Source: Bdellovibrionales bacterium
GTDB taxonomy: Bacteria > Bdellovibrionota > Bdellovibrionia > Bdellovibrionales > UBA1609
Reading direction: 5' to 3'
DNA length: 64,000 bases
NCBI GenBank assembly: GCA_965226095.1
Contig: OZ245336.1
Span: 1,481,308 to 1,545,307, forward strand
The notes beneath the pieces are model-generated. The model worked only from the letters and a program-made list of their open reading frames with translations, was not told the DNA's origin and searched no databases. Position 1 is the stretch's first letter, and each line of letters starts with the position of its first letter. Shown in pieces: positions 34,168 through 58,327 of this stretch. The translations under genes and the position numbers were made by a program.

Positions 34168-34191
34168 CTGAAAGCTCTCTAAGAGCTTCAG
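34168..34191 (+). terminator. possible stem-loop downstream of purD
   Basis: ctgaaAgctct-cta-agagcttcag forms a 10-bp stem with one bulge and a 3-nt loop, 16 nt after the purD stop. There is no T-tract, so this is weak. Confidence 0.25.
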
Positions 34192-34289
34192 TCCCTTGAA
34201 AGCAGGAATCCAGTCAAACCCGTCATTCCGGCCTTGAGCCGGAATCCAGAAAACAAATTTCGTCATTCCGGCCTTGAGCCGGAATCCAG
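34191..34289 (+). repeat. REP/NIME-like hairpin repeat block (3 units)
   Basis: One variant unit (cttgaaagcaggaatccag) plus two exact copies of cgtcattccggccttgagccggaatccag, with 8-bp arms ATTCCGGC/GCCGGAAT. Lies between the purD stop and the 3' end of OMP paralogue 1. Confidence 0.95.
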
Positions 34290-34319
34290 TCAGCTTCTCA
34301 ACTTTACATTACTCTTGGC

Positions 34320-34925
34320 TTAAAAATAGTATCTGCCTTTTACTTCAAAGAAAGGCATTGGAACAAGAAGGAAAAGTGTCTTTCCTCCTGCATCATTATC
34401 ATAAAGTAAACTATCTAAAGCTATAGAAGGAGCTAAAGAAGCAACTTTTATTTCAATGGCAATTTCAAATGAATCGTTTATATTAAAATTTCCAAAAACT
34501 CCAAGAAAACTAACTAACATAAGACTCCAATCATCTTTTGGAAAAAACAAATAAGGAACGATGGGTGATACATTTAATCCAAAAGAAAATAAACTATCTC
34601 TCATAAATTCATATCCATACTCAAGATTTAATTTCCCCATCAATGGAGCTTCAAGCAAAACTTCACTAAATGCAGAAGTACCGACATTTATATCTGCAAG
34701 AACATAACCAAAATAATTTGTTGAATCTAAAGTATGTTTGTACCCCAAACCAACACTTATAGAAACACCCGGTTTACTAGAAAGATTCAGTTCTTGAAAT
34801 AATCCAAATGTTGTCAGTTCAACAAAAGTGTTTTTCTGATTTGCACCTGCATACGAAACAGACACACAGAAACAACTTAATAAAATTAAGTGCTTCATAA
34901 CTCGTAAAACATTTTTCAAGTTCAT
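34320..34925 (-). CDS. small outer-membrane beta-barrel protein, paralogue 1 of 4
   Basis: True start taken at the ATG at 34925 (MNLKNVLRVMKHLILLSCFCVSVSYA, a signal peptide). The ORF-track TTG at 34988 is the -35 hexamer. Ends ...FFEVKGRYYF (terminal aromatic, OMP signature). Confidence 0.7.
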   Translation of the reverse strand: MNLKNVLRVMKHLILLSCFCVSVSYAGANQKNTFVELTTFGLFQELNLSSKPGVSISVGLGYKHTLDSTNYFGYVLADINVGTSAFSEVLLEAPLMGKLNLEYGYEFMRDSLFSFGLNVSPIVPYLFFPKDDWSLMLVSFLGVFGNFNINDSFEIAIEIKVASLAPSIALDSLLYDNDAGGKTLFLLVPMPFFEVKGRYYF

Positions 34926-35000
34926 AATAATCTTCTTTTCTATAAAGTTTACAACTGTCATGTTATTTTTATAGCTTAAAATTGTCAAAATAAATTAAAT

Positions 35001-35147
35001 AACACATACAGCTGCCGGCGCGAAAGTAGTTTCAGATATTTGCCGTCATCCCTGTACTGCCGTCATTCCGGCCTTGAGCCGGAATCCAGAAAACAAATCT
35101 CGTCATCCCTGCATCCACCGTCATTCCGGCCTTGAGCCGGAATCCAG
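35001..35147 (+). repeat. composite repeat: GC-rich palindromic module + TTCAGATATTTGC module + 2 hairpin units
   Basis: aacacatacagctgccggcgcgaaagta / ttcagatatttgccgtcatccc / 2x gtcattccggccttgagccggaatccag. Confidence 0.95.
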
Positions 35148-35177
35148 TCAACTTTTTAACGTTACATTACTCTTGGC

Positions 35178-35783
35178 TTAAAAATAGTATCTGCCTTTTA
35201 CTTCAAAGAAAGGTCTTGGCTTAAATGGACTCAACAAAGGTATCTCATCAGAGCGACTGAAAATGTAATAATCTAAGGCTTGAAAAACAGCTTTTACTTC
35301 AATGGCAACTTCAAATGAATCGTTTATATTAAAATTTCCAAAAATTCCAAGAGAACTTGCTAAATTAACGTTCCATTCTTTATCGCTTTGATTTTCGTAT
35401 TTAATAAGTGAAACAAGAGGAAAGACAGGTGATACATTTAACCCAAAAGAAAATAAACTGTCTCTCATAAATTCATATCCATACTCAAGATTTAATTTTC
35501 CGGCAAGTATGTAGTGCTCATCAGAAACGAGTCCACCAGTAAATACAGATGTACCAATATTTACATCTGCCAAAACATAACCAAAATAGTTATTGGAATC
35601 TAACTCATACTTGTATCCCAAACCTCCACCTACAACAAAAACCACATCAAATGATACTACTTCGCTTGTTGTTAGCTCAACAAAAGTATTTTTCTTATTT
35701 ACACCTGCATACGAAACAGATACAAAAAAACAACTTAATAAAATTAAGTGCTTCATAACTCGTAAAACATTTTTAAAGCTCAT
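35178..35783 (-). CDS. small outer-membrane beta-barrel protein, paralogue 2 of 4
   Basis: ATG at 35783 lies 6 nt after AAGGAG. Signal peptide MSFKNVLRVMKHLILLSCFFVSVSYA. Conserved blocks GLGYKYELD..NYFGYVLAD, GKLNLEYGYEFMRDSLFSFGLNVSP, FGNFNINDSFEVAIEVKA, FFEVKGRYYF. Confidence 0.75.
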   Translation of the reverse strand: MSFKNVLRVMKHLILLSCFFVSVSYAGVNKKNTFVELTTSEVVSFDVVFVVGGGLGYKYELDSNNYFGYVLADVNIGTSVFTGGLVSDEHYILAGKLNLEYGYEFMRDSLFSFGLNVSPVFPLVSLIKYENQSDKEWNVNLASSLGIFGNFNINDSFEVAIEVKAVFQALDYYIFSRSDEIPLLSPFKPRPFFEVKGRYYF

Positions 35784-35817
35784 AATAATCTCCTTTTTTA
35801 TAAAGTTTACAACTGTC

Positions 35818-35846
35818 ATCTTATTTGTATAGTTTAAAATTGTCAA
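35818..35846 (-). promoter_or_regulatory. sigma-70-type promoter of OMP paralogue 2 (TTGACA-N17-TAAGAT)
   Basis: The reverse strand reads TTGACAattttaaactatacaaaTAAGAT. The same architecture is conserved upstream of all four paralogues, with -35 hexamers at 34983-34988, 35841-35846, 37831-37836 and 38694-38699. Confidence 0.65.
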
Positions 35847-35926
35847 AATAAATTAAAAAACCAGCTAATAACACACCCAGCTGCCGGCATGAAAGTGACT
35901 ACTTCCATAAAACTAACATTTTGGAT

Positions 35927-35982
35927 ACCTATCCAAAATATTAGCTAATATTTTTGACACCTATCCAAAATATTAGTACTAT
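35927..35982 (+). promoter_or_regulatory. candidate promoter TTGACA-N17-TACTAT embedded in an 18-bp direct repeat
   Basis: acctatccaaaatattag occurs twice (35927-35944 and 35959-35976). The -35 TTGACA is at 35954-35959 and the -10 TACTAT at 35977-35982, 10 nt before the ATPase ATG at 35993. Confidence 0.45.
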
Positions 35983-35992
35983 ACTAGGTACG

Positions 35993-37102
35993 ATGAAAAG
36001 GTATTTAAAACAAGCTATTTTGGAAGACATAAAAAGTAAAATGGTGTTTGTATCCGGTCCAAGGCAAGTGGGAAAAACCACTCTCTGTCTTGATTTAGCT
36101 CCAAAAAAACACCGTTATATGAATTGGGATATTTTAACAGACAGAGAGTTTATTTTAAGACAAAAGTTCCCTGTAGAGAAATTCATTATTTATGATGAAA
36201 TTCATAAATTCACAAAGTGGCGTAATTATCTCAAAGGACTTTATGATAAACATAAACCGCAAAAAAAAATTCTCGTCACAGGAAGTGCCCGTTTGGATTA
36301 TTATAGACATTCCGGTGATTCTTTACAGGGAAGGTATCATCATCATCGTCTCCACCCTTTTACTGTGCGGGAGTTAAATATAAAAAGTCAAAAAGACATT
36401 ATGGATCTTCTGCATTTGGGAGGTTTCCCTGAACCTTTTTTATCCGGTTCTCATAGGCAGGCGAAGCGATGGATGCGGGAATACAGAAGTCGTGTGGTTA
36501 ACGAGGAAATTTCTTCCCTGGAGCTTTCTAAAAATTTATCTCAAATGGAGCTTCTCCTGTTAAAACTTCCTGAAAGGATAGGCAGTCCTTTATCCATCAA
36601 TTCTTTAAGAGAAGATATGGATGTTGCTCATAAAACTCTCTCCAAATGGCTCAATATTTTTGAAAGAATGTACCTGATTTACAGAGTTTCTCCTTTTCAT
36701 TCTAATAAGTTTAGAGCATTAAAAAAAGATCAAAAACATTACCATTACAACTGGGCGGAGGCGATCAATGACGGAGCAAAATTTGAAAACATGATGGCCG
36801 GGCACTTATTAAAATGGGTTCATTTCCAGCAGGATTACAATGGGAAGAACATAGATCTTTGTTATTTTCGGGATGTAGATAAAAGAGAGGTGGATTTTAT
36901 TATAACTGAGAACAAAAGACCAATTCAGGCTATAGAGTGTAAGTGGCAGTCAAAAGAGATTTCACCTTCTTTAAAATATTTTAAGTCAAAATTTTCAAAG
37001 ACGGAATGCATACAGGTTAATATGATTTGTCCAAAAGAATACATCTCGAAAGAAGGAATTAAAAACCTAAGCTGGAACACCTTATTGCACAAGCTGATTT
37101 AA
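35993..37102 (+). CDS. AAA-type ATPase (AAA_14 + DUF4143-like architecture)
   Basis: ATG at 35993 (MKRYLKQAILEDI...). Walker A GPRQVGKTT and Walker B IIYDEIHK. C-terminal EVDFIITE...IECKW resembles the DUF4143 nuclease-like tail. The ORF-track TTG at 35954 coincides with a -35 hexamer. Confidence 0.7.
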   Translation: MKRYLKQAILEDIKSKMVFVSGPRQVGKTTLCLDLAPKKHRYMNWDILTDREFILRQKFPVEKFIIYDEIHKFTKWRNYLKGLYDKHKPQKKILVTGSARLDYYRHSGDSLQGRYHHHRLHPFTVRELNIKSQKDIMDLLHLGGFPEPFLSGSHRQAKRWMREYRSRVVNEEISSLELSKNLSQMELLLLKLPERIGSPLSINSLREDMDVAHKTLSKWLNIFERMYLIYRVSPFHSNKFRALKKDQKHYHYNWAEAINDGAKFENMMAGHLLKWVHFQQDYNGKNIDLCYFRDVDKREVDFIITENKRPIQAIECKWQSKEISPSLKYFKSKFSKTECIQVNMICPKEYISKEGIKNLSWNTLLHKLI

Positions 37103-37110
37103 GGATATTA

Positions 37111-37137
37111 GTCATTCCTGCGGAAGCAGGAATCCAG
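37111..37137 (+). repeat. hairpin repeat unit, variant stem
   Basis: gtcattcctgcggaagcaggaatccag, with arms ATTCCTGC/GCAGGAAT. Lies immediately 3' of OMP paralogue 3. Confidence 0.9.
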
Positions 37138-37179
37138 CCAATTTTTCAATTATCAGATAAACGTTACATTACTCTTGGC

Positions 37180-37773
37180 TTAAAAGTAGTATCTACCTTT
37201 TACTTCAAAACCAGGCTGTGGATAAAATGGACCCAAAATGGAGCTCTTTTTCTCATCAGAGTTGCTAAGAATGTAATAATCTAAAGTCGTAAAAATAGCT
37301 TTTACTTCAATTGCAACTTCAAATGAATCGTTTATATTAAAATTTCCAAAGATTCCAAGAGTACTGTTTAAATTAAGACTCCACTTTCTATCGCTTTGAT
37401 TTTCGTATTTAGTAAATGAAACAACAGGTATAACAGGTGACACATTTAATCCAAAAGAAAATAAACTATCTCTCATAAATTCGTACCCATACTCAAAATT
37501 TAATTCTCCGTATGCGCGACCGAAACCAGTAAGAGCAGCACTAACATTTAAATCTGTTAGAACATAACCAAAGTAGTCTTTTGAACCTAAATCGTATTTA
37601 TACCCTAAACCTCCACCTATATTAAAGTCCATCCCTATAGACGATACCTCTCCTGATGTTGTCAGTTCAACAAAAGTGTTTTTCTTATTTACACCTGCAT
37701 ACGAAACAGATACAAAAAAACAACTTAATACAATTAAGCGTTTCATAACTCGTAAAACATTTTTAAAGCTCAT
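37180..37773 (-). CDS. small outer-membrane beta-barrel protein, paralogue 3 of 4
   Basis: ATG at 37773 after AAGGAG. Same conserved blocks as the other paralogues, with divergent loop segments. Confidence 0.75.
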   Translation of the reverse strand: MSFKNVLRVMKRLIVLSCFFVSVSYAGVNKKNTFVELTTSGEVSSIGMDFNIGGGLGYKYDLGSKDYFGYVLTDLNVSAALTGFGRAYGELNFEYGYEFMRDSLFSFGLNVSPVIPVVSFTKYENQSDRKWSLNLNSTLGIFGNFNINDSFEVAIEVKAIFTTLDYYILSNSDEKKSSILGPFYPQPGFEVKGRYYF

Positions 37774-37866
37774 AATAATCTCCTTTTTTATAAAGTTTAC
37801 AACTGTCATCTTATTTGTATAGTTTAAAATTGTCAAAATAAATTAAGAAGACAACATAATATTAAA

Positions 37867-37981
37867 ATAACACCCAGCTGCCGGCGCGTAAGTAAGTCAT
37901 TCCTGTCACTGTCGTCATGCCTGCGAAGGCAGGCATCCAGAAAAAAAGTTCATCCCTGTGAAAACAGGGACAGGAATCCAG
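37867..37981 (+). repeat. composite repeat: GC-rich palindromic module + 2 variant hairpins
   Basis: aataacacccagctgccggcgcgtaagtaa, then gtcatgcctgcgaaggcaggcatccag (arms ATGCCTGC/GCAGGCAT), then ccctgtgaaaacaggg...ggaatccag. Confidence 0.9.
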
Positions 37982-38024
37982 TCAACTTTTCAATTATCAG
38001 ATAAACGTTTACATTACTCTTGGC

Positions 38025-38636
38025 TTAAAAATAATATCTGCATTTTAGTTCAAAATGAGGTATTGGAAAAAAGTCAGTCCTAACAAATCCTTCTTTTAAA
38101 TTACCAAGTAACATTCTATTTAAAAATCGATAAACAGCTTTTATTTCAATGGCAACTTCAAATGAATCGTTTATATTAAAATTTCCAAACATTCCAAGAG
38201 AACTCGTAAACATAAGATCCCAATCCGTACGGCCTTTACGATTTTCAGAGATAGACAAATCACGACCTTTAAAAATAGACACAGAAGAAATAATGGGTGA
38301 TACATTTAACCCAAAAGAAAATAAACTATCTCTCATAAATTCATATCCATATTCAAGATTTAATTTTCCAGCCAATATAGCTTCCCCACCAGTAAGTGCA
38401 GGAGTACCAATATTTATATCTGCCAAAACATAACCAAAATAGTTGTTAAAATCTAACTCATACTTGTATCCCAAACCTCCACTTATATAAATACCTCCTA
38501 AAAATGATACTATTCCATTTGTTGTCAGTTCAACAAAAGTATTTTTCTTATTTACACCTGCATACGAAACAGATATGCAGAAACAACTTAATACAATTAA
38601 GCGTTTCATAATTTGTAAAATATTTTTAAAGCTCAT
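38025..38636 (-). CDS. small outer-membrane beta-barrel protein, paralogue 4 of 4
   Basis: ATG at 38636 after AAGGAG. Signal peptide MSFKNILQIMKRLIVLSCFCISVSYA. Ends HFELKCRYYF. Confidence 0.75.
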   Translation of the reverse strand: MSFKNILQIMKRLIVLSCFCISVSYAGVNKKNTFVELTTNGIVSFLGGIYISGGLGYKYELDFNNYFGYVLADINIGTPALTGGEAILAGKLNLEYGYEFMRDSLFSFGLNVSPIISSVSIFKGRDLSISENRKGRTDWDLMFTSSLGMFGNFNINDSFEVAIEIKAVYRFLNRMLLGNLKEGFVRTDFFPIPHFELKCRYYF

Positions 38637-38728
38637 AATAATCTCCTTTTTTACAAAATTTATAACTGTCATGTTATTTATATAGCTAAAAAATGTCAAA
38701 ATAAATCAAATAACCAGCATAGTATGAA

Positions 38729-38782
38729 ATAACACACCCAGCTGCCGGCAGGTAAGTAACTTCAGGTATTTGCTGTCACTCC
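38729..38782 (+). repeat. GC-rich palindromic module + TTCAGGTATTTGC module
   Basis: ataacacacccagctgccggcaggtaagtaacttcaggtatttgctgtcactcc. Confidence 0.9.
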
Positions 38783-38791
38783 TTTAAGGGT

Positions 38792-38980
38792 TCAATTATC
38801 CTTAGAAAAGTCTTCTGCTTCATATTTTTGAAGGATGTGGTGACAACGATTTTTTATAGATAAAAACAACTCTCCTTTAAGAGAAAAATCTGCTTTTGTA
38901 ATTAAATCACATCGACTATCTGCACTCATTTTTTTTAGATGCCTCTTTACATCCTGCACACTTCTTTGAGGATTAAACAC
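38792..38980 (-). CDS. small ORF; likely the 3' remnant of a 109-codon gene split by the HAD insertion
   Basis: 62 aa. Codons 11-15 (VKRHL) are encoded by the 17-bp repeat that also occurs in ORF 39681..39914, in the same codon phase. Confidence 0.35.
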   Translation of the reverse strand: MFNPQRSVQDVKRHLKKMSADSRCDLITKADFSLKGELFLSIKNRCHHILQKYEAEDFSKDN

Positions 38981-39705
38981 TACACTACAATACCATATCC
39001 ACCATAAGTCCTTGTCAATGACAGTGCTGGTATGTCTGTCGGACCATCTCCTATATAAATAAAGTTACTAAATGGACTCCAAAATTCGCCCCGTTGCACC
39101 TTATCATTAACAGCCTGTACCTTAGATTCTTCTGTAAAAACTCCTTTGGATATCTCATATAAAGCTCTTGTTTTCATTGTTTGATCCATACAAAAAACAG
39201 GAATACTCTCTACATCATCTTTCTTTCCCGGCGGATACACACAGCTATATCGACAACCCCAGATATTTGAAAATATTTCTTTAGGTACTAAAGATTCCAC
39301 ATACTCCTTTAAACCAGCTGTAATAATAAACTGATGAATTTTTATATTACTGTTTTTAAATTTGATTTCTTCTTCAATTTTTTTAATTTTTCCCAACAAA
39401 CTTTCAACTCCTGAATATAATTTCACCAATTCAGTGACTTCTTCATGAGAAAAAAATTCTTTTGTTAATGGTTTCTTCCCATGAAAAGCTATTCGTGATA
39501 AAACATACATCCATGTAGGCGCATCAGATGAAAGCATTCTCTCCCAATCAACTTCAGATTTTGAACCACTCACTGTTTTAATCCACTCCCAAAATTTTTC
39601 TATTTTTTCTGTACCTAAAAAGTACTCAACAATTTCTGATGTAGAATCATCTGGAGTAAGTGTACCGTCAAAATCCCAAACTATAGATATATTTCTGTGA
39701 GGCAT
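38980..39705 (-). CDS. HAD-superfamily hydrolase
   Basis: 241 aa. Motif I VWDFDGTLT (DxDxT) and motif IV IYIGDGPTDIPAL (GDGxxD). Confidence 0.7.
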   Translation of the reverse strand: MPHRNISIVWDFDGTLTPDDSTSEIVEYFLGTEKIEKFWEWIKTVSGSKSEVDWERMLSSDAPTWMYVLSRIAFHGKKPLTKEFFSHEEVTELVKLYSGVESLLGKIKKIEEEIKFKNSNIKIHQFIITAGLKEYVESLVPKEIFSNIWGCRYSCVYPPGKKDDVESIPVFCMDQTMKTRALYEISKGVFTEESKVQAVNDKVQRGEFWSPFSNFIYIGDGPTDIPALSLTRTYGGYGIVV

Positions 39706-39914
39706 GATTGATTATATGTTTCTGCGCTTAGATGCCTCTTTACAGATCTGCTTTTGGTAGCATTGTTGTTAGAAACTAACCGCCCAGTTCGAGAATCCCT
39801 ATGAACAGGCATATCAAGTATACCAAAATTGGACACATCATACCCATGAGAATTAATATGCTTTGTTGGTACTTTAGTTTTAGAAGATGATTTTTTCTTG
39901 CTCATATTTGACAA
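39681..39914 (-). CDS. small ORF; likely the 5' remnant of the gene split by the HAD insertion
   Basis: 77 aa, Ser/Lys-rich. Codons 58-62 (VKRHL) lie on the second copy of the 17-bp repeat. The tail overlaps the HAD start. Confidence 0.35.
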   Translation of the reverse strand: MSNMSKKKSSSKTKVPTKHINSHGYDVSNFGILDMPVHRDSRTGRLVSNNNATKSRSVKRHLSAETYNQSCLTEIYL

Positions 39915-40150
39915 TTACTATACCTAAATATAACTGTTCAAGCAATACATTAATGCTTACAGCAATATAATAAAAAAATTATCTTATCAAGTCTCCACCT
40001 TGGTCTTAAACTCTATATTTTATTCTTACATAATGCACAACTGCTGACACAAAAATCATTTCAGGTATAGGTCACCATTTTGACATAAGATAATTTATAC
40101 GAAATTCGGATCTCGTTCAGATTTCGCACAAACCAAAAATTACACAATCA

Positions 40151-40200
40151 AATAACACACCCAGCTGCCGGCAGGTAAGTAAACCTAGATATTTACTGCT
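40151..40200 (+). repeat. GC-rich palindromic module + (C)TAGATATTTAC module, overlapping the 3' end of the next gene
   Basis: aataacacacccagctgccggcaggtaagtaaacctagatatttactgct. The last 6 codons and the stop of ORF 40185..42197 are supplied by the repeat. Confidence 0.9.
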
Positions 40201-42197
40201 ACACCTATTCCCAGTTCAGTGTTTAACATATCACGCCAGGCTTCGTAAATCATAACCATTGCAAGAGTGTCCAGTTCACAATACTTAAGTAAGGCAGACT
40301 CAAGTTCTTTTTTCTCATACTCGCTTATTTCACTAAATTGCATCCTTCCATAAGCAGTTAAAGCTGCTCCACCATTGGATAATTCATCTTCTTCTGATAA
40401 CAGACTCATATTCTTATCCGACACATCCTGAAACATTTTAGGTAGCCGTTTATAGGGTTCAACAATACTCCCTTCTTTCCATTCAATCCATTTCCAATCC
40501 TTAAAGTTCAAGCTTTTTATACCTTCTGAAGAACCATAAATAGGCTTGCTGTATTTCTCTTGCAAAAATTTTGAGGAGTTTAACACAGCAGGAAGGACTT
40601 GCTTAATAGAATTTGATCCTTTGGTATAAGGAGCATAGAAAAACCTTTTTACCAATTCGTACATATCCACCATACACCTATCACCTTCCCATTTTTCAGA
40701 ATTTGACCGGTTGGATTTTGTAATAGATTTTATAAATTCACAAAGAACCTTTCTGTCTGGAATATTGTTTTGGTCTTCTAACAACTGACGATAAATTTTA
40801 TTTAAATAGGTATTCTCATGACTTGCATATCTAAATATAGTGCCCTTATCTTTTTCAAGCTCACTCTTTAATTGTCTTACAAACTCATAGTTAGGAAAAA
40901 CACCTTGTTTTGTATTTAAAAATTGTCCGGCATGTTCTATTGTTCCGTCTTCATAGACTACATGGTGAGAAAACTGAAAGGCTACTCCCTCGTAAGGCTT
41001 ACGGCCTTTATTAAAAGGAAAAGCAACAGAGCTTGTTTCAAAGTCAATAAAATGTAATGGGAATATCCATTTGTCCATTTCGTTTTTCATTCCTTGAACA
41101 TCCAGGAAAGGTTTTATTTCTCCTCTCTGGGCCATTTTAACCTGAAGCCATTGTCTCTCACTAGAAGACATACCTGATTTTTTATCTTCTTTAGGACACA
41201 CATCTTCTTCAACCAAACTGGATAATTTGACTTTCCCATTTTGTATCAATTTATCTTTTTTTCTAAAACCACAAATGCTCAAAACATTTTCATCTTCAAA
41301 ATCTTTATCAGACCAATTTAGCTGTGAAGACCAACATTCTTTAAAACCACTTTTAAAACCAGTTTGTTCTTCTTCCTTTGAACAGGTAAATTCACACTCT
41401 GCACACTTTGAACCAATATCTGAAACAATCTTCTCGTCCTTTTCGTATTTCTCAGCTAAAAATGAAACTTCATCAAAAAAGTTTCTATTTCTTTGTTCTG
41501 CTGAATCGTTGCCGTCATAAATCAGTTGAATTTCCTTATCCACAGGAACTTGCACTAAAATTTTCTTATCTAAACATTCTTTAGGTAGAGTATTAGAGAC
41601 CTTAATACCTTTTCTGTTATTTTCATCTCTAATAATTTTAAATTTCTGATTTAAACCTTCAACAGGGCATTTTGCGTTCTTATCTACCAGCATTAAATAG
41701 GATGTAACTGAAGCTTCGGGATAAGCACTTGTCAGAACATATTTTTGAAAAGCTATATCGTATAAGTAGGACTTCCAACTTGATTTTATTGTTGTTCCTT
41801 TTTTACTTAAAAATGGTCTTTCTTTATTCCCATCAAATGACTTGGATTTGACTTCAATAAGTTGAAACTGATTACCTTTTTTAATTAAAACATCAATTCT
41901 TATAAAAAGATTTTTAAATTTGATAGCTGGCTCATAAATAATAACTTCATCTTGCTTCAATAGCTCTAGTGTTTGAGCCTGCGCTTCCTCATAATCAAGG
42001 GTTGTAATATCATGTCCATTAGGAAAATACAGCTTTGCAAGCTCCCCTACTTGATAACCTCCGTCTGCGAGGGCAGAAAGAAAGGGATCATCTATTTTTT
42101 GATTTGGGTATTCTGACTTCCTTGTGTAATAGAGTTTTGTTGGACATTCCAGACCCAATTTAAAGCGTGATTTTGTTAAATATCTATGATTTTTCAT
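40185..42197 (-). CDS. DUF2779-like protein (N-terminal PD-(D/E)XK/Cas4-like nuclease region plus C-terminal DFET exonuclease-like region)
   Basis: 670 aa. N-terminus YLTKSRFKLGLECPTKLYY...IRIDVLIKKGNQFQLIEVKSKS. C-terminal FPLHFIDFETSSVAFPFNKGRKPYEGVAFQFSHHV matches my recollection of the DUF2779 hallmark. Confidence 0.6.
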   Translation of the reverse strand: MKNHRYLTKSRFKLGLECPTKLYYTRKSEYPNQKIDDPFLSALADGGYQVGELAKLYFPNGHDITTLDYEEAQAQTLELLKQDEVIIYEPAIKFKNLFIRIDVLIKKGNQFQLIEVKSKSFDGNKERPFLSKKGTTIKSSWKSYLYDIAFQKYVLTSAYPEASVTSYLMLVDKNAKCPVEGLNQKFKIIRDENNRKGIKVSNTLPKECLDKKILVQVPVDKEIQLIYDGNDSAEQRNRNFFDEVSFLAEKYEKDEKIVSDIGSKCAECEFTCSKEEEQTGFKSGFKECWSSQLNWSDKDFEDENVLSICGFRKKDKLIQNGKVKLSSLVEEDVCPKEDKKSGMSSSERQWLQVKMAQRGEIKPFLDVQGMKNEMDKWIFPLHFIDFETSSVAFPFNKGRKPYEGVAFQFSHHVVYEDGTIEHAGQFLNTKQGVFPNYEFVRQLKSELEKDKGTIFRYASHENTYLNKIYRQLLEDQNNIPDRKVLCEFIKSITKSNRSNSEKWEGDRCMVDMYELVKRFFYAPYTKGSNSIKQVLPAVLNSSKFLQEKYSKPIYGSSEGIKSLNFKDWKWIEWKEGSIVEPYKRLPKMFQDVSDKNMSLLSEEDELSNGGAALTAYGRMQFSEISEYEKKELESALLKYCELDTLAMVMIYEAWRDMLNTELGIGVAVNI

Positions 42198-42237
42198 TTT
42201 AAGGTATCATATCGGATAATTTTGATAAAACTTGAAT

Positions 42238-42353
42238 TTCAGATATTTACAGTCATTCTTGTCACTGCCGTCATTCCGGCCTTGAGCCGGAATCCAGAAA
42301 ACAAATTGTCATTTCTACATCCACCGTCATTCCGGCCTTGATCCGGAATCCAG
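42238..42353 (+). repeat. TTCAGATATTTAC module + 2 hairpin units
   Basis: ttcagatatttacagtcattcttgtcactgcc, gtcattccggccttgagccggaatccag, and a second unit with one arm mismatch (ccttgatccgg). Confidence 0.95.
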
Positions 42354-42490
42354 TCAACTTCTCAATTTATTAATAGCTATTTTAAATCTTATTTGTTCTA
42401 AAATTACCATAGTCTAGTTTAAGCAGTGTTTTTATATATTATTTAGTATAAACCCTTAAGTTGATTTCAAAATAGCCGATAAATTCAATT

Positions 42491-43259
42491 ATGGAAGCAA
42501 CTAAAGAGATTCTTCTTGCTCATCATCGGAGCAAAAAGAGAATCCTTACTTTGGGGAAGTTTTCACCCCTGAGAAATATGTCAATCAAATGTTGGATATG
42601 TTGGACAAGTTGTTTGGATAGATACCAATACTGTTTTTTTTGAGCCAACATGTGGGCACGGAAATTTCGTTGAAGCTATTGTTGAAAGACGGATACACGC
42701 TTTCTTGAGAAAAGCAAAAAGACAAAAGATTAAAAATCCTCATTTCTATACTGTAGCAAATACTTTAAACAATCTATGGGCTATAGATATTGATTCAAAA
42801 AATATAGAGTTTTGCCGAAATAGAGTGAGAACTCTCATTTTCAATTTCCTATTTATCTTTTGAACATGAGAGAAATATTCTATCATCAGCAGATTTTATA
42901 AGAACTAATGAAGATTTTTTAACTCACGTTTTATGCTGTATTGAATGGCAGATACATGAAAACGAAACACTTTCATGTTTGGAGGCAAATGTTCTTAAAG
43001 CCAAAGAGATAGTAAATAGAACGACTGTCAGCAAAAAATGGTTAAAAAAAAATAAACATCGACCCTAAATTTTGAAATGAATTGGTGCCAGTATTTTAAA
43101 GGCTATAAAAGAGAAAACATTATTCCAGATGAATATACAAAGAATTTTAGAGTTATCAATTCATTAGTAAATAGCAAAAAAAAGTATCATAGAAAGAAAG
43201 AAATCTTAGAGACCTTTCCCATGCCAGACTTTAATATCGAAATACCAACAGTCGCTTAA
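42491..43259 (+). pseudogene. remnant of an N6-adenine DNA methyltransferase-like gene (multiple frameshifts/stops)
   Basis: No ORF of 60 aa or more covers 42491-43076. Across two frames one reads YFGEVFTPEKYVNQMLDMLDK and DTNTVFFEPTCGHGNFVEAIVER...LWAIDIDSKNIEFCRNRV, an AdoMet-binding motif I context. No NPPY motif was found, so the extent is uncertain. Confidence 0.45.
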
Positions 43260-43277
43260 AAAAATATAGGAGATTTT

Positions 43278-44718: not shown

Positions 44719-44791
44719 CAAGTTTTTAATATTGAAAACTTGTTATAGCTTCAAAAGGAAAATTTTTGTGAAAAAAAGAATACGCCGGTCA

Positions 44792-45475
44792 ATGATACTT
44801 ACTCAAAAATTAGAAGGTATCTCAAAAAAAATATTTGAAAGATATAAAAAAAAAGTAATCCTATATATTGGAAATAAACCAGGAGTATATGCTCTTTATG
44901 ATGAAAAAGAGTTATACTATGTAGGTCGTGCCTCTGATTTGGCAAAAAGAGTTAATGATCATTTGAAGGATCGACATTCTGCACTTTGGACTCATTTTTC
45001 AGTTTATTTTACTAAAAAAGCACAATATGCAAATGATATAGAAGCTGTAATTATTTCTGTAGCACAACCTAAAGGAAATAAAGAAACACCCAAATTGGGA
45101 AAAGAAAAAAAACTTAAAGATATTCTTAGAAAAGCTATAAAAGAGAGTCACCAAGAAGAATTAAGAGAACTAGGGTTGAGTAGAAAAAAACAAGTTGATT
45201 TAAAGAAAAAGAGAAAAAGGAAAAATAGACCTGTCTTAAAAAATTATTTTAATAAAAACAAACCTTTAATGAAATCTTATAAAGGTAAAATCTATAAGGC
45301 TGTATTGCTGAAGTCAGGTAAAATTAAATATAATAAGAGAGAGTATGATACTCCCACTTCAGCTGCAGAAGCGATTGTAAAAATGCATTTACCAAATTCA
45401 GCTGTTAATGGTTGGTATTTTTGGTTTATTAAAGATTCTGAAAACAATTGGATTAAGTTAAACGAACTGGATTAA
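44792..45475 (+). CDS. GIY-YIG nuclease-domain protein with DUF4357-like C-terminal domain
   Basis: GVYALYDEKELYYVGRASDLAKRVNDH (GIY...YVG...R). C-terminal YDTPTSAAEAIVKMHLPNSAVNGWYFW resembles the SPSxAA...NGW motif of DUF4357. ATG at 44792; the ORF-track TTG is at 44732. Confidence 0.65.
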   Translation: MILTQKLEGISKKIFERYKKKVILYIGNKPGVYALYDEKELYYVGRASDLAKRVNDHLKDRHSALWTHFSVYFTKKAQYANDIEAVIISVAQPKGNKETPKLGKEKKLKDILRKAIKESHQEELRELGLSRKKQVDLKKKRKRKNRPVLKNYFNKNKPLMKSYKGKIYKAVLLKSGKIKYNKREYDTPTSAAEAIVKMHLPNSAVNGWYFWFIKDSENNWIKLNELD

Positions 45476-45489
45476 GAAAGGTAATTAAT

Positions 45490-47894
45490 ATGTCTGAAAA
45501 ATTAGAACTTTATGTTTATACTACAAACACTTGGCAAGAAAAAGGTTTGTTAAAGGTGGGACATTGTTTGAGAGGACGACATGAAGAGCGTATCAATGAA
45601 CAATTTAATGCCAGTAACCCTGATAAACCTAAAATTCTGTGGTTCGTAGAGTTGCCAGAGGGAAAAACAGATAAGCATATTCATCAACAATTAATAGATA
45701 ATGGGATTAAACATAAAGAAGATGGTGCAGGAACAGAATGGTTTTATGCAAATTTAGAGGATGTAAAAACCGCTTATAATCAAATGATTTGTGGGGTTAA
45801 ACGAACAGACCGTTTTCCTTTGAGAAGAGAACAGAAAGAAGCTGTAGATAAAGCTGTTAAATGGTTTAACAAAGACTATTCTTATAAGACAATAGATTCA
45901 GCTACTCATAAAAACAGGTTTTTATTAAATGCTAAAATGAGATTTGGAAAATGTTTTACTGGTATCCATATTGCAAAAGCTATTGAGGCAAAAAAGACCA
46001 TTATTGTTACCTATAAACCAAGAGTTATTGAGGAGTGGATGAATGCTGTCAATAACCATGTAGATTTCAAAGATTGGACAGGAATCAGAGCAAAACAAGG
46101 AGAAAATAGAAATGAACTTTTTCTTAATGAAATAGGTGATTTTCCTGAACATTCAGATTCTTTAGTCTTATGTGTGTCTTTACAGGATTTGGATATTGAT
46201 GATCAGGGAAATGTAAAAGGCCGGCTCAAAAAAGTTTTAGAAACAAAATGGGACTTACTTATTTTTGATGAAGTGCATTTTGGAGGAAGAACGAATAGAT
46301 TTAAGAATATTTTAAAATACTTAGATCCACAATTTCGCCTTGAGCTTTCTGGAACTCCTTTTCGTCTCATTGGAACAGTAGATTTTTGCCCTGAACAGGT
46401 TTTTACCTACAGTTATCTTGATGAACAGAAAAATAAGAAACAAGAGATTCAAAGTGACCCAGAACAAAAACAACTTTTTATTTATAGACAAATGCCAAAT
46501 TTGAATCTTTCTACTATAGAAATTACAGATAAAGATATAAAACATCAAAAAGAAAAATTTATGACAGATGACAGGGACTTTTCTTTAAATGAATTATTTA
46601 AAGCAACTAATTCAGGTTTTATTCATAATGATGCTGTAGATCACTTTTTAGAAAGTCTGTCAAAAAGAGATTATGGGGCTACTGCTTTGAGTGTTTATGG
46701 AAAATTAGGAGAACAGTTAGGTCTTTCAAACAAAAGACATAGTATTTGGTGGTTAAAGTGTTCAGTCTATTAAGCAACTTATAAAAAAGTCTAAAACATC
46801 ATCCTATTTTTTCTCAATATGAAATTATCAATGCGGCTGGTGGAAAAGCTGGTGATGATTTATCTGATGACGATTTATCTGATGAAATTTTTGCAAAAAA
46901 CAAAAAAGATATAATAAACACAATTGAAAAGGTTAATACCAATGAAATTAACAAGATTGGCACAATAACACTTACTTGTAGGAAATTTTTAACAGGTGTT
47001 ACTATTAAACAATGGGATTCCATGTTGATATTAAATGATATTCAATCGGCAGAAAGTTATTTTCAAGCTATTTTTCGGATTCAATCAGCTTGGTTTGATA
47101 GAGAATATAATAAAGTGTTAAAGCCTGTGGGATATGTTTTTGATTTTGCTATTTCTCGTTGTTTACGAACTACTTATAGTTATGCAAATGCTTTGGCTGA
47201 TCAGTTAGATCAACAGGACAGTTCTAAATATCAAGCTTGTAGGAATAGTAATTTAGTGAAGGTAATTGACGGTTTCTGTGACACTTTGAACATCAAACAA
47301 TTTTATGAGGGAAGTTTAAAGAGTGATCCTGTAACTTCTCGGCAAATATTTGAAGCAATAGCCAGTGAAGGTTCTGTAGTTGCTTTAGCCAAAAGAATTA
47401 CCAGTGATGTTTTGGTGTCCTTTCCTTCTCTATCTCTTTTGGAGAGTTATCCACACTTGTTTGAAGCATTAAAAAATGTGAAAGGTTACAGAAGTCAGCA
47501 AGCTGGTAGCCTTGAGGATTTTATTCGAATAGGAGATGAAGCTAAAAGAAAAAAGTTAGAAAAAGATAAATTAGAACCTAATGATGAAAAAACTGCAAAA
47601 GATAATGAAGATTTTGTAGAAAAAGATAAAGATAAAGATAAGAAAAATAAAAAGAAATGGTATGCGACACAAATTAAAAGATTGGCCATTTGTATGGCTG
47701 ATTTTATTTATATGACTTATAAAAGAGAATATAAAATTGATGAAGTTATCGAAACAAAGTATCCAAAATTTTTTAAAACTGTTACAGGTATCAGTAAAGA
47801 TGATTTTTGTGAACTTTGTGAAAAAGGGTTTATACATAAGAGTCACTCAATCGTATTGTTAGAGAGTTTGCCTTCCGAGAAGAAAGCTCTGTAA
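45490..47894 (+). pseudogene. T5orf172/GIY-YIG-like N-terminal domain + DEAD/DEAH-type helicase, interrupted
   Basis: N-terminus LYVYTT...GLLKVGH...GTEWFYANLEDV. Walker A-like AKMRFGKC and DEVH box (LLIFDEVHFGG). Frame 1 stops at 46773. The homologous text continues in frame 3, which has its own TAA at 46782-46784 and is open from 46785 (HHPIFSQYEIINAAGG...QAIFRIQSAW) to 47894. Confidence 0.65.
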
Positions 47895-47982
47895 AACCAG
47901 AAGAATATATTTTTGAGCATATACAACAAATTACGGATAAAAAATCCGCTTAAAATCTTAAAATTATTTAGTTTTTTTAAAT

Positions 47983-48018
47983 GACTGGATTCTTGCTTTC
48001 GCAGAGGTAGGAATCCAG
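47983..48018 (-). repeat. degenerate hairpin repeat unit (reverse orientation)
   Basis: gactggattcttgctttcgcagaggtaggaatccag, with CTGGATTC...GAATCCAG arms. Confidence 0.7.
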
Positions 48019-48045
48019 AAAACTAAAACCTATTATTTATATGTT

Positions 48046-49251
48046 CTATTTTCGTAAGTAATAACTCCACTTCCCTCTGACTTTATTATGTTTAGAAAAT
48101 ATAAATTGATTGTGATTAGCACACAACAGTCTTAAGTTATCAGGCTCACTTGTGCCACCTAACGAAAAAGGTTTAATGTGATCTATTTGCAACAAGTGAT
48201 TGGATGAACATCTTCTTTTTGTCTTTGGACAAATATAAGTACACTGCCCCTGATCTCTCATCCACACATGATGTCTCACTACTGAAGGAATATATCTTGT
48301 GTATTTTGAATGTTTTTTTGTTGTTTGTTCTAAAGAAGCTTTTTTGAATGTGCTTTTACTTTGTTTATTTAATTTTCGTTTAGGATCATATTTGTCTAAA
48401 CCCAGTTCTGCTAGTAGTGTGAATAACTCTCCATAGGACATATTGGGATTTTTATGTGATAAGAGCTTTTTTAAATCTTCCAGGTTTTGCTGACAATTTT
48501 TGTCCAAAATTACTTTTATCTCTACTTTATCATTATTTATATCTCTAACTTTTTCTTTTGAAATGGGAATTTCAGGATCTATCTCAAAAAGTGTCTTTTC
48601 CAACTCACGACTGGACTGACCTTCCGCTTTTTGTATTAAATCCAGTTTTTGAGTAGAATTTAACTCCAAAGTGGTTTTATTTTTTTGCTTATCCTCTAAT
48701 TTGTTCTCTTCTTTTTTGCCTTCATCCGCATTGTTATTAACGCACCCAGCTGCCGGCAGGTAAGTAGACTTAGAATCACACCCCTTTAAATTGCTTTCTT
48801 TAAGTGTTTTATCCTTCCTTCTCTTTTTCTCAAAAAAAGTTTGTAATTGAGAAGCTGTAGTTAAGTTTAAACTTCCACTTTTTATCTTTGGTGTGGCTTG
48901 TGGGATATCACGGCATAATCTCATAGCTTTAATTCTCCTATAAGCAGCACTGTGACTATAATCCAATTCCTTAATGGCATATTCAAATAGGCTAGGAAAA
49001 CCTCTTTTAAGATAGAGCTTTCTACTTTCTATTTCCTGTAAGTGTTGCAGCACTTGGATATTGATTTGTCTTTCTTTTTGAACCAGATTTTTTTGTGAAA
49101 GCAATTGGTCATTGCTGAGTTTTTTTAAATTTGTATTTATTTTTATTTCTGTACTTGTATTGACTGGATTCCTGTCCCTGTTTTCACAGGGATAAACTTT
49201 TTTTTCGCAGGAATGACGACGTATATTTTGTTTTTCCTGTTGTATGTACAT
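48046..49251 (-). CDS. HNH endonuclease (DUF222-like N-terminal region) carrying repeat-element insertions
   Basis: C-terminal HNH motif: QCTYICPKTKRRCSSNHLLQIDHIKPFSLGGTSEPDNLRLLCANHNQF. N-terminal LQEIESRKLYLKRGFPSLFEYAIKELDYSHSAAYRRIKAMRL. Codons 10-32 and the STYLPAAGCV segment are encoded by repeat modules. Confidence 0.75.
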   Translation of the reverse strand: MYIQQEKQNIRRHSCEKKVYPCENRDRNPVNTSTEIKINTNLKKLSNDQLLSQKNLVQKERQINIQVLQHLQEIESRKLYLKRGFPSLFEYAIKELDYSHSAAYRRIKAMRLCRDIPQATPKIKSGSLNLTTASQLQTFFEKKRRKDKTLKESNLKGCDSKSTYLPAAGCVNNNADEGKKEENKLEDKQKNKTTLELNSTQKLDLIQKAEGQSSRELEKTLFEIDPEIPISKEKVRDINNDKVEIKVILDKNCQQNLEDLKKLLSHKNPNMSYGELFTLLAELGLDKYDPKRKLNKQSKSTFKKASLEQTTKKHSKYTRYIPSVVRHHVWMRDQGQCTYICPKTKRRCSSNHLLQIDHIKPFSLGGTSEPDNLRLLCANHNQFIFSKHNKVRGKWSYYLRK

Positions 49252-49450
49252 AAAAAATACCTCCTATGTTGTTACTGTTACCTTTATAAGGGAAAAACAA
49301 TATAACATGGGTTTTTAAAAGAGATTTTTATAAGGGTGGAGCTTAGTTATAGCTTCAAGCTTTAAGGCACCTGATAGCTTCATAAATAGGTTGTTTTACT
49401 CTTAAGCTTTAAAAAACATTTAGATGATAGAAAAAAAGCAACCACGATGA

Positions 49451-49515
49451 AATATAAGCATCAAAAATCCTGTCAAGATTTTTTACAATAAGAACAGTGT
49501 GTAAATTAAATATAC
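49451..49515 (+). promoter_or_regulatory. conserved ~65-bp upstream element with near-palindrome AAAAATCCTGTCAAGATTTTT (copy A)
   Basis: aatataagcatcaaaaatcctgtcaagattttttacaataagaacagtgtgtaaattaaatata. A second copy is found at 50207-50271. Lies about 110 bp upstream of ORF 49623. Confidence 0.5.
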
Positions 49516-49622
49516 TAATTTTAATTTTTTTCATACATTAGTCTAAATTTTTACACATTTTTTCAGAGTTTTTTTAATATAACCCTTTAGATTGAAACTA
49601 AGTAGGCCGATAAAGTTATGTC

Positions 49623-50189
49623 ATGGAGGCAATCGAGAATATTCTGCAATTTATATATTATCGGAGTAAAAAAGAATCCGAAGTTTTAAAGCAGTTTTCA
49701 TTTTTGAAAAATATGTTAGAAATAATAAAAATAATTTTAATATCAATATTACTTGTATTTAGCTTTAATAGCTACTCACTGTTAGCTTTAGATTGTAAAG
49801 ATTTAAAAGGATTAAGTCTTAGAAATGAAAAATTTTCGAAGGACAGCTTTTCTAAGGCTCGTCTACTTATTACATTTTTTAGTAATAACAATAGTATGTT
49901 CTATAATTGGAATCAAAATACAGGAACTTTTGTTGATATGTGGAATAGCATTAAAGGATTTGAAGAATTAAAAGTTGTGCAAAGTAACTCTAATATGGCT
50001 TTAGGGTATTCAGTTAAAAATGGTTTAGAAGGTATAAGGATTCATTTTAAAAAGAAAACAGCTGTATATGCTAAACATGTAGCACCTCTTATTGATGGCT
50101 TTGGGACAGACGGTATTTATAAAATGAAGTGTATTGATGTAACACAAGAGTTACAACAGGTTACAAAAAGTAGCAATAAGGAAAATTAA
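49623..50189 (+). CDS. hypothetical secreted/membrane protein
   Basis: 188 aa. Internal Met followed by a hydrophobic segment (MLEIIKIILISILLVFSFNSYS), so the real start may be downstream. No recognisable domain. Confidence 0.35.
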   Translation: MEAIENILQFIYYRSKKESEVLKQFSFLKNMLEIIKIILISILLVFSFNSYSLLALDCKDLKGLSLRNEKFSKDSFSKARLLITFFSNNNSMFYNWNQNTGTFVDMWNSIKGFEELKVVQSNSNMALGYSVKNGLEGIRIHFKKKTAVYAKHVAPLIDGFGTDGIYKMKCIDVTQELQQVTKSSNKEN

Positions 50190-50206
50190 AAAGAACGAAT
50201 ATAAAA

Positions 50207-50271
50207 AATATAAGCATCAAAAATCTTGTCAAGATTTTTTACTAGTAAAACAATGCGTAAATTAAATGTAT
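50207..50271 (+). promoter_or_regulatory. conserved ~65-bp upstream element with perfect 10-1-10 palindrome AAAAATCTTG-T-CAAGATTTTT (copy B)
   Basis: aatataagcatcaaaaatcttgtcaagattttttactagtaaaacaatgcgtaaattaaatgta. Lies about 55 bp upstream of ORF 50326. Confidence 0.5.
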
Positions 50272-50325
50272 AAATAATTTAAAGTTCTTTAAGATCATGT
50301 CAATATACTTATAAAGAGGTAAGTA

Positions 50326-50733
50326 ATGAAAATATCTGGAAAGATACTAATAACTGTATTGGCATTGATTAGTGTATTTTATTTTTATGTCCAATTTCCA
50401 AAAAGTGCCTTTTATAGCAAAATTTTTTATAGGAAATGTGACTCCCATAAAACTGATCTTGAACTTGAAAAACTTGGAAAACAATTTTCTGTTCTAACTG
50501 AAAACTGGGAAAACAATAAAAACCCTATAAATATAGATCATTATTTTAAAATGAAAGAAGCAGAAAAAGATCTTTTTAGTGCTGAACCATGCTTTGAAAA
50601 GATCAATAAAAAAATTAACAGTTTAGGTATAACAGATATGAAGAATGAAAGTCAGAGAGTAAAATGTTTATTTACAAGGGAACTTATAAAGTGTTATAAA
50701 AAAGCGATTAAAATAATGCAGAGATATTTATAA
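50326..50733 (+). CDS. hypothetical membrane-anchored protein
   Basis: 135 aa. N-terminal TM (ILITVLALISVFYFYV). RBS-like agaggtaag upstream. No recognisable domain. Confidence 0.4.
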   Translation: MKISGKILITVLALISVFYFYVQFPKSAFYSKIFYRKCDSHKTDLELEKLGKQFSVLTENWENNKNPINIDHYFKMKEAEKDLFSAEPCFEKINKKINSLGITDMKNESQRVKCLFTRELIKCYKKAIKIMQRYL

Positions 50734-50929
50734 AAATTATCTTTGCTAATCGATCAATCTTTTTTATTTCATGAATAACTGCATCTAATCTGTTTTTAGT
50801 AGAGGCTTCTATCTCTAATCCATTATCAATAGGAAACCAATATACTCCCTCAATTTGTAAGCGCACATCCCCTAATTTGTTCTTATTATCAGGGTCAGGA
50901 TAGTAATTTGCTCTATATCTTTTATCCAT
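50708..50929 (-). CDS. small hypothetical protein
   Basis: 73 aa. Strong RBS (aaaggagaa, 5 nt before the ATG). Convergent 26-nt overlap with the previous gene. No recognisable domain. Confidence 0.4.
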   Translation of the reverse strand: MDKRYRANYYPDPDNKNKLGDVRLQIEGVYWFPIDNGLEIEASTKNRLDAVIHEIKKIDRLAKIIFINISALF

Positions 50930-51004
50930 TATTTTCTCCTTTATTACTTAATGAAAGTAAGAATTGTATTCATAAACTTATCAGTTGATCAAATATTTTT
51001 TTTA

Positions 51005-51431
51005 ATGACTGGATTGCGGCTCAAGGCCGCAATGACAGGCGCATGCAGGAATGACGGTTGAGACAGGAATGACGGGGTTACAGGAATGATGGGCTTGTAG
51101 TCACTAAGTAACTTTTTCTGGATTCCGGCTCAAGGCCGGAATGACGACTGAGGTAGGAATGACAATTTGTTTTCTGGATTCCGGCTCAAGGCCGCAATGA
51201 CAGCTTTACTGGATTGCGGCTCAAGGCCGCAATGACGAGTACACGCAGGAATGAAAGGTGGGTGCAGAAATGAAAAGTGGATTCCGGCTCAAGGCCGGAA
51301 TGACGACTGAGGCAGGAATGAAAGGTGGATTGCGGCTCAAGGCCGGAATGACGAGCACGCGCAGGGATGAAAGGTGGATTGCGGCTCAAGGCAGGAATGA
51401 AAGGTGGATTGCGGCTCAAGGCCGGAATGAC
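51005..51431 (-). repeat. dense array of 8 hairpin repeat units plus half-sites (reverse orientation) abutting the ftsK stop
   Basis: Eight copies of (c/g)tggatt(c/g)cggctcaaggcc(g)(g/c)aatgac, separated by 20-80 bp that contain caggaatga(c/a) half-sites. Arm variants ATTCCGGC and ATTGCGGC mostly co-vary with their partners. Confidence 0.95.
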
Positions 51432-51437
51432 AAAGAA

Positions 51438-58305: not shown

Positions 58306-58327
58306 TCCTCACTCCGAAGTATTGATT

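Follow-up and report, generated by a model that had tools for sequence, protein, structure and literature searches.

In the 64-kb stretch of contig OZ245336.1 that we analysed (hereafter the window, whose positions are used throughout), the genes purD and ftsK enclose a family of 28-base hairpin repeats of the form (C)GTCATTCC-stem-loop-stem-GGAATCCAG, which are probably Ssn-related motifs (SRMs) and are interspersed with accessory genes. The window has a GC content of 35% and comes from an uncultured bacterium with a small genome, and the nearest named homologues of its purD are metagenome-assembled genomes of Bdellovibrionales (53–59% identity). Both flanks were confirmed by Pfam: purD (32896–34152, + strand; GARS_N/A/C) has identities of 82–90% or more in six relatives (L121, L122, L123, L124, L144 and L145), and ftsK (51438–53786, − strand) is 83% identical to that of L124.

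A covariance model built from 16 aligned units was applied, without filters, to both strands of the entire window. It found 16 full units (31–58 bits, E 1e-14 to 8e-7) that span 34219–51434, with no match of comparable score outside this span, and the other 46.8 kb of the window, beyond the interval from the purD stop to the ftsK stop, contains no unit. Together with the degenerate or truncated copies at 34191–34213, 37950–37981, 47985–48018 and 49164–49219 the total is ∼20, as stated in the preliminary description of this DNA, which had placed about 20 copies solely between the two stop codons. The pattern search proposed there was also run on the window: the literal pattern GTCATTCC-N9-15-GGAATCCAG has eight exact matches and none in shuffles, and GGAATCCAG alone has 13 matches against 0.46 expected. 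Intergenic gaps with units number six of 14 inside the interval and 0 of 20 outside it (Fisher p = 0.002).

The consensus of the 16 units is (C)GTC-ATTCCGGC-CTTGA-GCCGGAAT-CCAG, with no variation in the outer stem, in the last two bases (TC) of the 5′ GTC or in the C right after the palindrome (C28); the whole GTC precedes the palindrome in 15 of the 16 units, and the C follows it in all of them. All four stem variants named in the preliminary description exist and are fully paired, namely ATTCCGGC/GCCGGAAT in seven units, ATTGCGGC/GCCGCAAT in two, and ATTCCTGC/GCAGGAAT and ATGCCTGC/GCAGGCAT in one unit each, and five units that it left unmentioned (42326, 51174, 51325, 51374 and 51404) carry hybrid stems with one or two mismatches. 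Over the 16 units 94.9% of the pair cells are paired, with double changes at three pairs, and perfect units folded as single-stranded DNA (ssDNA) with DNA parameters form an 8-bp stem of −7.8 to −10.4 kcal/mol (z = −4 to −5.5). When 183 units with fixed outer flanks were pooled (146 sequences, 34 distinct inner sequences), at least three further base pairs were kept in 24 of the 34 inner sequences compared with ∼4% of shuffles, which supports constraint on the hairpin. Covariation in a DNA palindrome alone is not proof of selection at the RNA level, and the published partner of such hairpins acts on ssDNA; the constraint asserted earlier stands, and selection on an RNA structure does not follow from it. 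The full units are all on the + strand up to 42.35 kb and all on the − strand from 51.0 kb onward, which bears out the reported switch of orientation for full units, while the remnant at 48.0 kb, where inversion had been said to begin, mixes both orientations.

On the purD side, a degenerate unit, GTCCCTTGAAAGCAGGAATCCAG (34191–34213, +), read from the sequence and with a GGAATCCAG match, is followed by the full units GTCATTCCGGCCTTGAGCCGGAATCCAG (34222–34249, +) and 34262–34289 (+), and then by the first of four aligned paralogs that resemble genes of outer-membrane proteins (OMP-like; paralog 1, 34320–34925, −). Upstream of paralog 1, a palindromic module (CAGCTGCCGGC) and a TTCAGATATTTGC (TTCAG) module (35000–35048, +) run into the half-unit GTCATCCCTGTACTGCC (35044–35061, +), which lacks the loop and 3′ arm as do the tandem half-units of L123. 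The full unit 35062–35089 (+), a second half-unit (35102–35119) and the full unit 35120–35147 (+) complete a composite at 34994–35159 whose order is palindromic module, TTCAG module, half-unit, SRM, spacer, half-unit and SRM, and the same composite is present in part at four other gaps. Beyond paralog 2 (35178–35783, −) lies the gene of an AAA_14/DUF4143 ATPase (35954–37102, +; Pfam, and PDC-S01 in PADLOC), a backbone cargo gene found also in L122, L123, L144 and L145, and this is followed by a full unit with the stem CCTGC/GCAGG (37111–37137, +), paralog 3 (37180–37773, −), a full unit with the stem ATGCCTGC/GCAGGCAT (37914–37940, +), a variant unit, TCATCCCTGTGAAAACAGGGACAGGAATCCAG (37950–37981, +), and paralog 4 (38025–38636, −). 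Two further full units lie at 42270–42297 (+) and 42326–42353 (+), the latter with one stem mismatch. The units at 34222, 34262, 35062, 35120, 37111, 42270 and 42326 were recovered by both the pattern and the covariance model, and that at 37914 by the model.

On the ftsK side, an inverted composite remnant (49164–49219, −) consists of a half-unit, a CCCTGTGAAAACAGGG hairpin and CAGGAATCCAG, mirrors the arrangement at 37895–37981, and sits in the 5′ end of an HNH ORF (open reading frame), an arrangement that recurs in L144 and L145. A full unit with the stem ATTGCGGC/GCCGCAAT (51009–51036, −) and three half-units (51040–51100) then lead to an array of seven SRMs with interleaved half-units (51118–51431, −; members 51118–51145, 51174–51201, 51209–51236, 51277–51304, 51325–51352, 51374–51401 and 51404–51431), which ends 7 nt before the ftsK stop. 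The half-units, GTCATYCCTGC-ATCC(A/T)C, are SRMs without loop and 3′ arm. The palindromic module AATAACACACCCAGCTGCCGGCAGGTAAGTAA (also CCCAGCTGCCGGCAGGTAAGTA and CAGCTGCCGGC) has five to six copies and the TTCAGATATTTGC module has three good copies, all inside the interval, and the units indeed combine with two other modules as had been described; both companion modules are lineage-specific.

Similar arrays occur in the relatives, where L144 has a long tandem array with ten GTCATTCC starts at a 36-nt period (12334–12710) that was called as a 143-aa gene, and L123 has four tandem half-units at an 18-nt period (11267–11340); such tandem arrangements point to slippage or to template switching at the hairpin. 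Within the window, repeat arrays give rise to spurious ORFs (42186–42341, 51186–51419, 51221–51358 and 51258–51452) with the recurring peptides VIPALSRNP, AGMT and WIAAQGRND, and peptides like these are frequent among the ‘hypothetical proteins’ of many genomes. A Logan short-read contig of the same organism with an identical purD (L120) stops inside the first SRM unit (7431–7460). The repeats thus break short-read assemblies and generate spurious ORFs.

The cargo between the flanks was correctly described earlier as OMP-like paralogs, nucleases and a decayed type IIG restriction-modification (R-M) module. The bodies of OMP-like paralogs 1–4 are 60–87% identical, and identity is 94% between the 3′ flanks of paralogs 1 and 2, which carry repeats. 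Paralog 1 has no Pfam or NCBIfam match, and AlphaFold2 gave an all-beta model with a pLDDT of 42, too poor for a fold search; the assignment as OMP-like comes from the signal peptide, the pattern of strand-like blocks and a C-terminal YYF (KGRYYF in paralog 1). The TTG starts of the four called ORFs (34988, 35846, 37836 and 38699, −) coincide with promoter-like TTGACA-N17-TAxxAT sites, and the actual start codons are ATGs that lie ∼63 nt further downstream and precede a signal peptide; the palindromic module just upstream of each of these promoter-like sites could be an operator. Another copy of this module (CCCAGCTGCCGGCAGGTAAGTA, 48738–48774) lies in frame in the 401-aa HNH ORF (48046–49251, −), where it reads STYLPAAGCV, and the 5′ end of the same ORF crosses the SRM remnant 49164–49219; L144 and L145 likewise have this ORF with an SRM in its 5′ part. 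Probably the true HNH gene does not extend over the whole ORF, or else an in-frame insertion of a repeat is tolerated in it.

The content of the purD–ftsK interval differs in all six relatives, which confirms that the interval is accessory and answers the comparison of synteny that had been proposed. In L124 (purD identity 85%), purD is separated from ftsK and dnaB by only 241 bp, and each end of this empty site keeps a single SRM, on the + strand at purD and on the − strand at ftsK; the pair faces inward, like the units of the window. L123 (88%) has four half-units and six + SRMs followed by a PDDEXK gene, one OMP-like paralog and the AAA_14 gene. L144 and L145 (90% or more) have the backbone AAA_14–DUF2779–HNH in common with the window and differ in their other cargo, and L121 and L122 (82–83%) have unrelated cargo downstream of purD. 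SRMs number six in L123, four in L144 and eight in L145, all downstream of purD, and none was found in ∼11 kb of core genes upstream of purD in L123, L124, L144 and L145; hence SRMs are confined to the variable interval in five genomes. At this hotspot L121 encodes large INT_rpt proteins and an ankyrin-repeat protein (11695–21263 and 15133–16437), eukaryote-like domains that hint at a host-associated lifestyle of the clade. Regarding the flanks themselves, purD directly follows fusA with a 4-nt overlap in the order rpsL-rpsG-fusA-purD (30761–34152), which is kept in all six relatives, and tuf would be usual after fusA. A GTG-started dnaB ORF (53651–55207, +) and the 5′ end of ftsK have 136 nt in common; the start of this ORF is probably over-extended, the L124 homologue having 460 aa.

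In Neisseria, minimal mobile elements are variable cassettes that lie between conserved flanking genes and are swapped by homologous recombination. The purD–ftsK interval resembles them in its conserved flanks with different cargo in each relative, in its empty-site form, and in that no integrase or transposase was found, either in a scan of the window interval or among genes called at the loci of the relatives. Unlike in those elements, internal repeats here also serve as junctions. Window positions 42303–48009, a 5.7-kb defence block, are missing from L145 according to blastn and a three-way alignment; the block contains decayed type IIG R-M fragments, a GIY-YIG-RAMA gene (44732–45475), a T5orf172-ResIII helicase gene (45490–46773) and one hypothetical gene. 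In the three-way alignment L145 matches the left SRM (42270–42297) up to its 3′ end GGAATCCAGAAAAC (42289–42302), and then continues with the sequence after a second GGAATCCAGAAAAC (48010–48023), at which the SRM remnant 47985–48023 (+) ends. The crossover thus lies inside GGAATCCAGAAAAC, and the SRM 3′ end is directly repeated on either side of the block. Another segment (38.78–40.15 kb) has also been replaced: it contains HAD/PDC-S34 in the window and an M78 peptidase and DUF4411 in L145, and is bracketed in both genomes by palindromic/TTCAG modules, of which the left junction in the window is a palindromic and TTCAG module (38730–38778, +) and the right a palindromic module (40153–40189, +). 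These observations support a role of the repeats as recombination junctions.

The repeats are, with good probability, SRMs of the NTS/dRS3 class of oriented DNA hairpins, arranged in NIME-like mosaics, presumably served by an Ssn encoded elsewhere and providing homology for cassette turnover. NIMEs are mosaic intergenic arrays in which short inverted-repeat hairpins flank further short repeat modules; here too, hairpins bracket other short modules in such arrays and variable surface-protein genes adjoin, while the strict dRS3 pattern is absent from the window and the companion modules are those of this lineage. The Neisseria NTS, CGTCATTCCCGCGMAVGCGGGAATCYRG, contains dRS3 and is the founding member of the pan-bacterial Ssn-related motifs (Chenal et al., Nat Commun 2025, PMC11893778). 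Its partner SsnA, a 94-aa single-domain GIY-YIG nuclease (cd10448), binds and cuts the motifs as ssDNA only; binding depends above all on the C right after the palindrome, and cleavage above all on the three bases that precede the palindrome (PMC11893778). The window unit CGTCATTCC[GGCCTTGAGCC]GGAATCCAG has both flanks of the Neisseria NTS and differs solely in the inner stem and loop, with CCGGC/GCCGG and CTTGA where NTS has the inner stem CCCGCG/CGCGGG. Thus the likeness to dRS3 and NIME noted in the preliminary description was understated as to the flanks, which are identical to those of the NTS that contains dRS3. Further likenesses are the oriented hairpin with its 5′ GTC and 3′ C, the clustering around outer-membrane-type and variable genes, and the presence of the motif in many phyla; the local host differs in being low-GC and probably a member of Bdellovibrionota. 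Published SRMs number tens to hundreds per genome, are more frequent than in shuffled genomes and cluster non-randomly (PMC11893778); in the window and the 20-kb pieces of relatives the units are clustered as well.

Scanning 185,579 species genomes with the 21-nt core ATTSCGGCCTTGAGCCGSAAT gave exact matches in at least 119 loci of at least eight phyla. Among the matches listed, the hosts include Dehalococcoidia, Nitrospinota, Rhizobiaceae, Silvimonas, Comamonadaceae, Vibrio, Planctomycetota, Bacteroidota, Fibrobacter, Deferribacteraceae and several groups of the candidate phyla radiation (CPR). Moreover, flanks that were not part of the search are kept across phyla, with GTC before the core in 121 and C after it in 121 of the 130 matches listed, and the unit is therefore not lineage-specific. 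Viral contigs gave only two matches, so the motif is not a phage feature. The exact core also adjoins Ssn-like genes in other organisms: it lies 17–55 nt upstream of 127-aa GIY-YIG genes in L059 and L104 and near small GIY-YIG genes in L077 and L102 (95–127 aa over the four loci), and in the 95-aa L077 protein Y6, Y17 and E64 coincide in position with the catalytic residues of SsnA. Canonical NTS copies accompany the local variant in six of these cross-phylum loci, and in L122 (purD identity 82%) the sequence CGTCATTCCCGCGTACGCGGGAATCCAG (1720–1744) is one base off the canonical Neisseria NTS pattern. This L122 copy lies between a Gp49/HTH toxin–antitoxin pair and an N_methyl (pilin-like) gene. 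The kind of repeat is thus already known (2025, building on work on dRS3 and NIME), and what is new is the host lineage, a widespread stem variant missed by the published motif, the empty site with an inward-facing pair and the repeat-internal indel junction.

Several results weigh against this assignment and against the role that it implies. None of the window units matches the published SRM search motif, HGTCWYN(0-2)YYVSBRHN(0-5)WNVSBRGN(0-2)RNCYNB, hand-curated from 29 genomes (PMC11893778), none matches NTS CGTCATTCCCGCGMAVGCGGGAATCYRG with up to three mismatches, and strict dRS3, the 20-bp repeat ATTCCC-N8-GGGAAT, has no match in the window, where the units are ATTCC-N11-GGAAT. The SRM motif fails because the units have a pyrimidine at one inner-stem position where it needs R, and since the failure is limited to the inner stem, we rejected the published patterns as membership filters. 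A scan for the GIY-YIG motif and tblastn searches with four proteins resembling Ssn (window and L120–L124, then L121–L124, L144 and L145) found no Ssn-type gene in the 64-kb window or in 128 kb from six relatives; this is ∼4% of the 1.55-Mb genome and therefore makes the absence uninformative, the Ssn partner being inferred. The sole GIY-YIG protein of the window (44732–45475) is a 247-aa defence-type GIY-YIG-RAMA protein and not a single-domain Ssn. A metagenome scan for the lineage-specific junction CCGGAATCCAGAAAACAAAT returned 17 unrelated contigs, none of a relative and none with ssn. The purD-side gaps of L121 and L122 and the ftsK-side gap of L122 have no SRM, and as the hotspot is variable there without border SRMs, the repeats populate it rather than define it; the earlier claim that the units delimit the region is not borne out. 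Finally, five of the 16 units have the hybrid stems listed above, and one clean junction does not prove a general mechanism.

The alternative that survives best, though we consider it unlikely, is that the repeats are selfish elements resembling repetitive extragenic palindromes (REPs) or miniature inverted-repeat transposable elements (MITEs), which are spread by a transposase encoded elsewhere, pile up where they are tolerated and have no role in recombination or defence; candidate enzymes would be RAYT/IS200-IS605-type Y1 transposases or an IS110/Piv-type recombinase targeting hairpins. REP, BIME and REPIN sequences with their RAYT are likewise extragenic palindromes of 20–40 nt, often in inverted pairs or mosaics, that are read as ssDNA hairpins by a dedicated enzyme. 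Tandem arrays, half-units resembling slippage or excision products and the confinement of the units to dispensable DNA would all fit such elements, and the hybrid arms in the 51-kb array suggest recombination turnover rather than selection. In Neisseria, a phage recombinase targets dRS3. The NTS-ssnA-NTS layout has itself been likened to an insertion sequence (PMC11893778). Yet Pfam detected no transposase, integrase or Y1_Tnp among 20 window ORFs (30.7–55.2 kb), and the flank of the units is GTCA instead of the GTAG that REPs typically have at the 5′ end. Neither a target-site duplication nor a clean insertion boundary was seen where homologous flanks are comparable, although homology in these alignments ends at stop codons, so that nothing is learned from them on the insertion boundaries of single units. 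The conservation of GTC and C across phyla at the exact positions that Ssn needs also speaks against such elements; a local partner, if present, would belong to the GIY-YIG family and not to HUH as for REP/RAYT.

It is quite improbable that the hairpins act in RNA as terminators or stabilisers of mRNA 3′ ends, with stem covariation reflecting selection on RNA structure. The preliminary description had placed the units immediately 3′ of genes, and this is true in sense orientation for purD, the AAA_14 gene and ftsK, whereas those at 35062, 35120, 37914, 42270 and 42326 stand in antisense to the adjoining genes or on their 5′ side. The stems are stable, and the hairpin of the variant unit directly 3′ of paralog 4 (37972–37951, −) is followed by a T-run; this hairpin and its copy at 49173–49194 (+) are the only ones from the repeats to have such a run, which follows the stem in none of the 16 full units on either strand, and the suggested terminator role is accordingly not upheld. 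Moreover, the number of terminator-like structures in the region does not stand out from the background (13, compared with 9.6 ± 2.9), eight copies in a row after ftsK are unneeded for termination, and a scan of the whole window found no Rfam family. SsnA does not bind the RNA form of NTS (PMC11893778).

We give almost no credence to an integron-like cassette array in which the hairpins would be attC-like sites of a site-specific recombinase: repeats foldable as ssDNA do separate cassettes in uniform orientation on the purD side, and an indel junction lies inside a repeat, but no integrase or tyrosine recombinase was found by Pfam in the window interval or in the gene calls for the relatives' loci, the 28-nt units have no GTTRRRY core, genes lie in both orientations with promoter-like sites of their own, and the motif is scattered singly through genomes of many phyla. 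The dif/Xer, CRISPR-like and integron readings were rejected in view of the lack of a recombinase or cas gene, the irregular spacing and ‘spacers’ that are themselves half-units.

Taken as SRMs, the units would each fold into an 8-bp hairpin whenever the DNA becomes single-stranded during replication, repair or uptake, and the hairpin with its 5′ GTC and 3′ C would offer a recognition surface to a small GIY-YIG Ssn nuclease, which would cut a few nucleotides upstream and on the GTCATTCC strand only. Because many near-identical units lie between cassettes, the copies may double as short homology for cassette gain, loss and duplication, and SRMs would have accumulated in the non-coding DNA of the purD–ftsK recombination hotspot. 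We infer that the source organism encodes an Ssn and that cleavage or recombination at SRMs drives cassette turnover.

Elsewhere in the window, a tandem repeat with a 9/18-nt period and ∼18 registers (3780–4049) lies in the ORF of a 779-aa FHA-domain protein (2084–4423, −) and encodes a repetitive low-complexity stretch, and five tandem 15-nt repeats (TCTGGTCTTCTATCA, 55810–55884) at the 3′ end of the ribosomal protein S6 gene (ORF 55800–56339, −) give a repetitive C-terminal tail. Five adjoining genes of 343–404 aa without a Pfam match lie at 57091–62963 (−), and at least three of them share DNA blocks that are 60–86% identical (families D5, D13, D14 and D16–D20). As three adjoining genes without a Pfam match (355–391 aa) occupy the matching place in L124, the five form a core paralog cluster.

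The present locus adds a distant and uncultured lineage of low GC content to the NTS/SRM–Ssn system, which was first described in 2025. The published SRM motif misses a stem variant that is present in at least 119 loci of at least eight phyla, and surveys using this motif therefore undercount the repeats. The empty site with its inward-facing pair and the repeat-internal junction of the 5.7-kb block bear on the role of SRMs outside Neisseria. A possible but tentative extension, which we hold with more doubt than the assignment to SRMs itself, is that SRMs and their companion modules constitute integrase-free cassette shuffling in this lineage of reduced genomes, in which the inward-facing SRMs at purD and ftsK would make both strands of any DNA across the interval accessible to Ssn cutting, and internal copies would provide junctions for the swapping, duplication and diversification of defence genes and hypervariable OMP-like genes. 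If true, the purD–ftsK interval would be a second, independent case of the NTS/NIME/minimal-mobile-element strategy of Neisseria, and the stem variant missed by current SRM searches would mean that the family is wider than published counts suggest.

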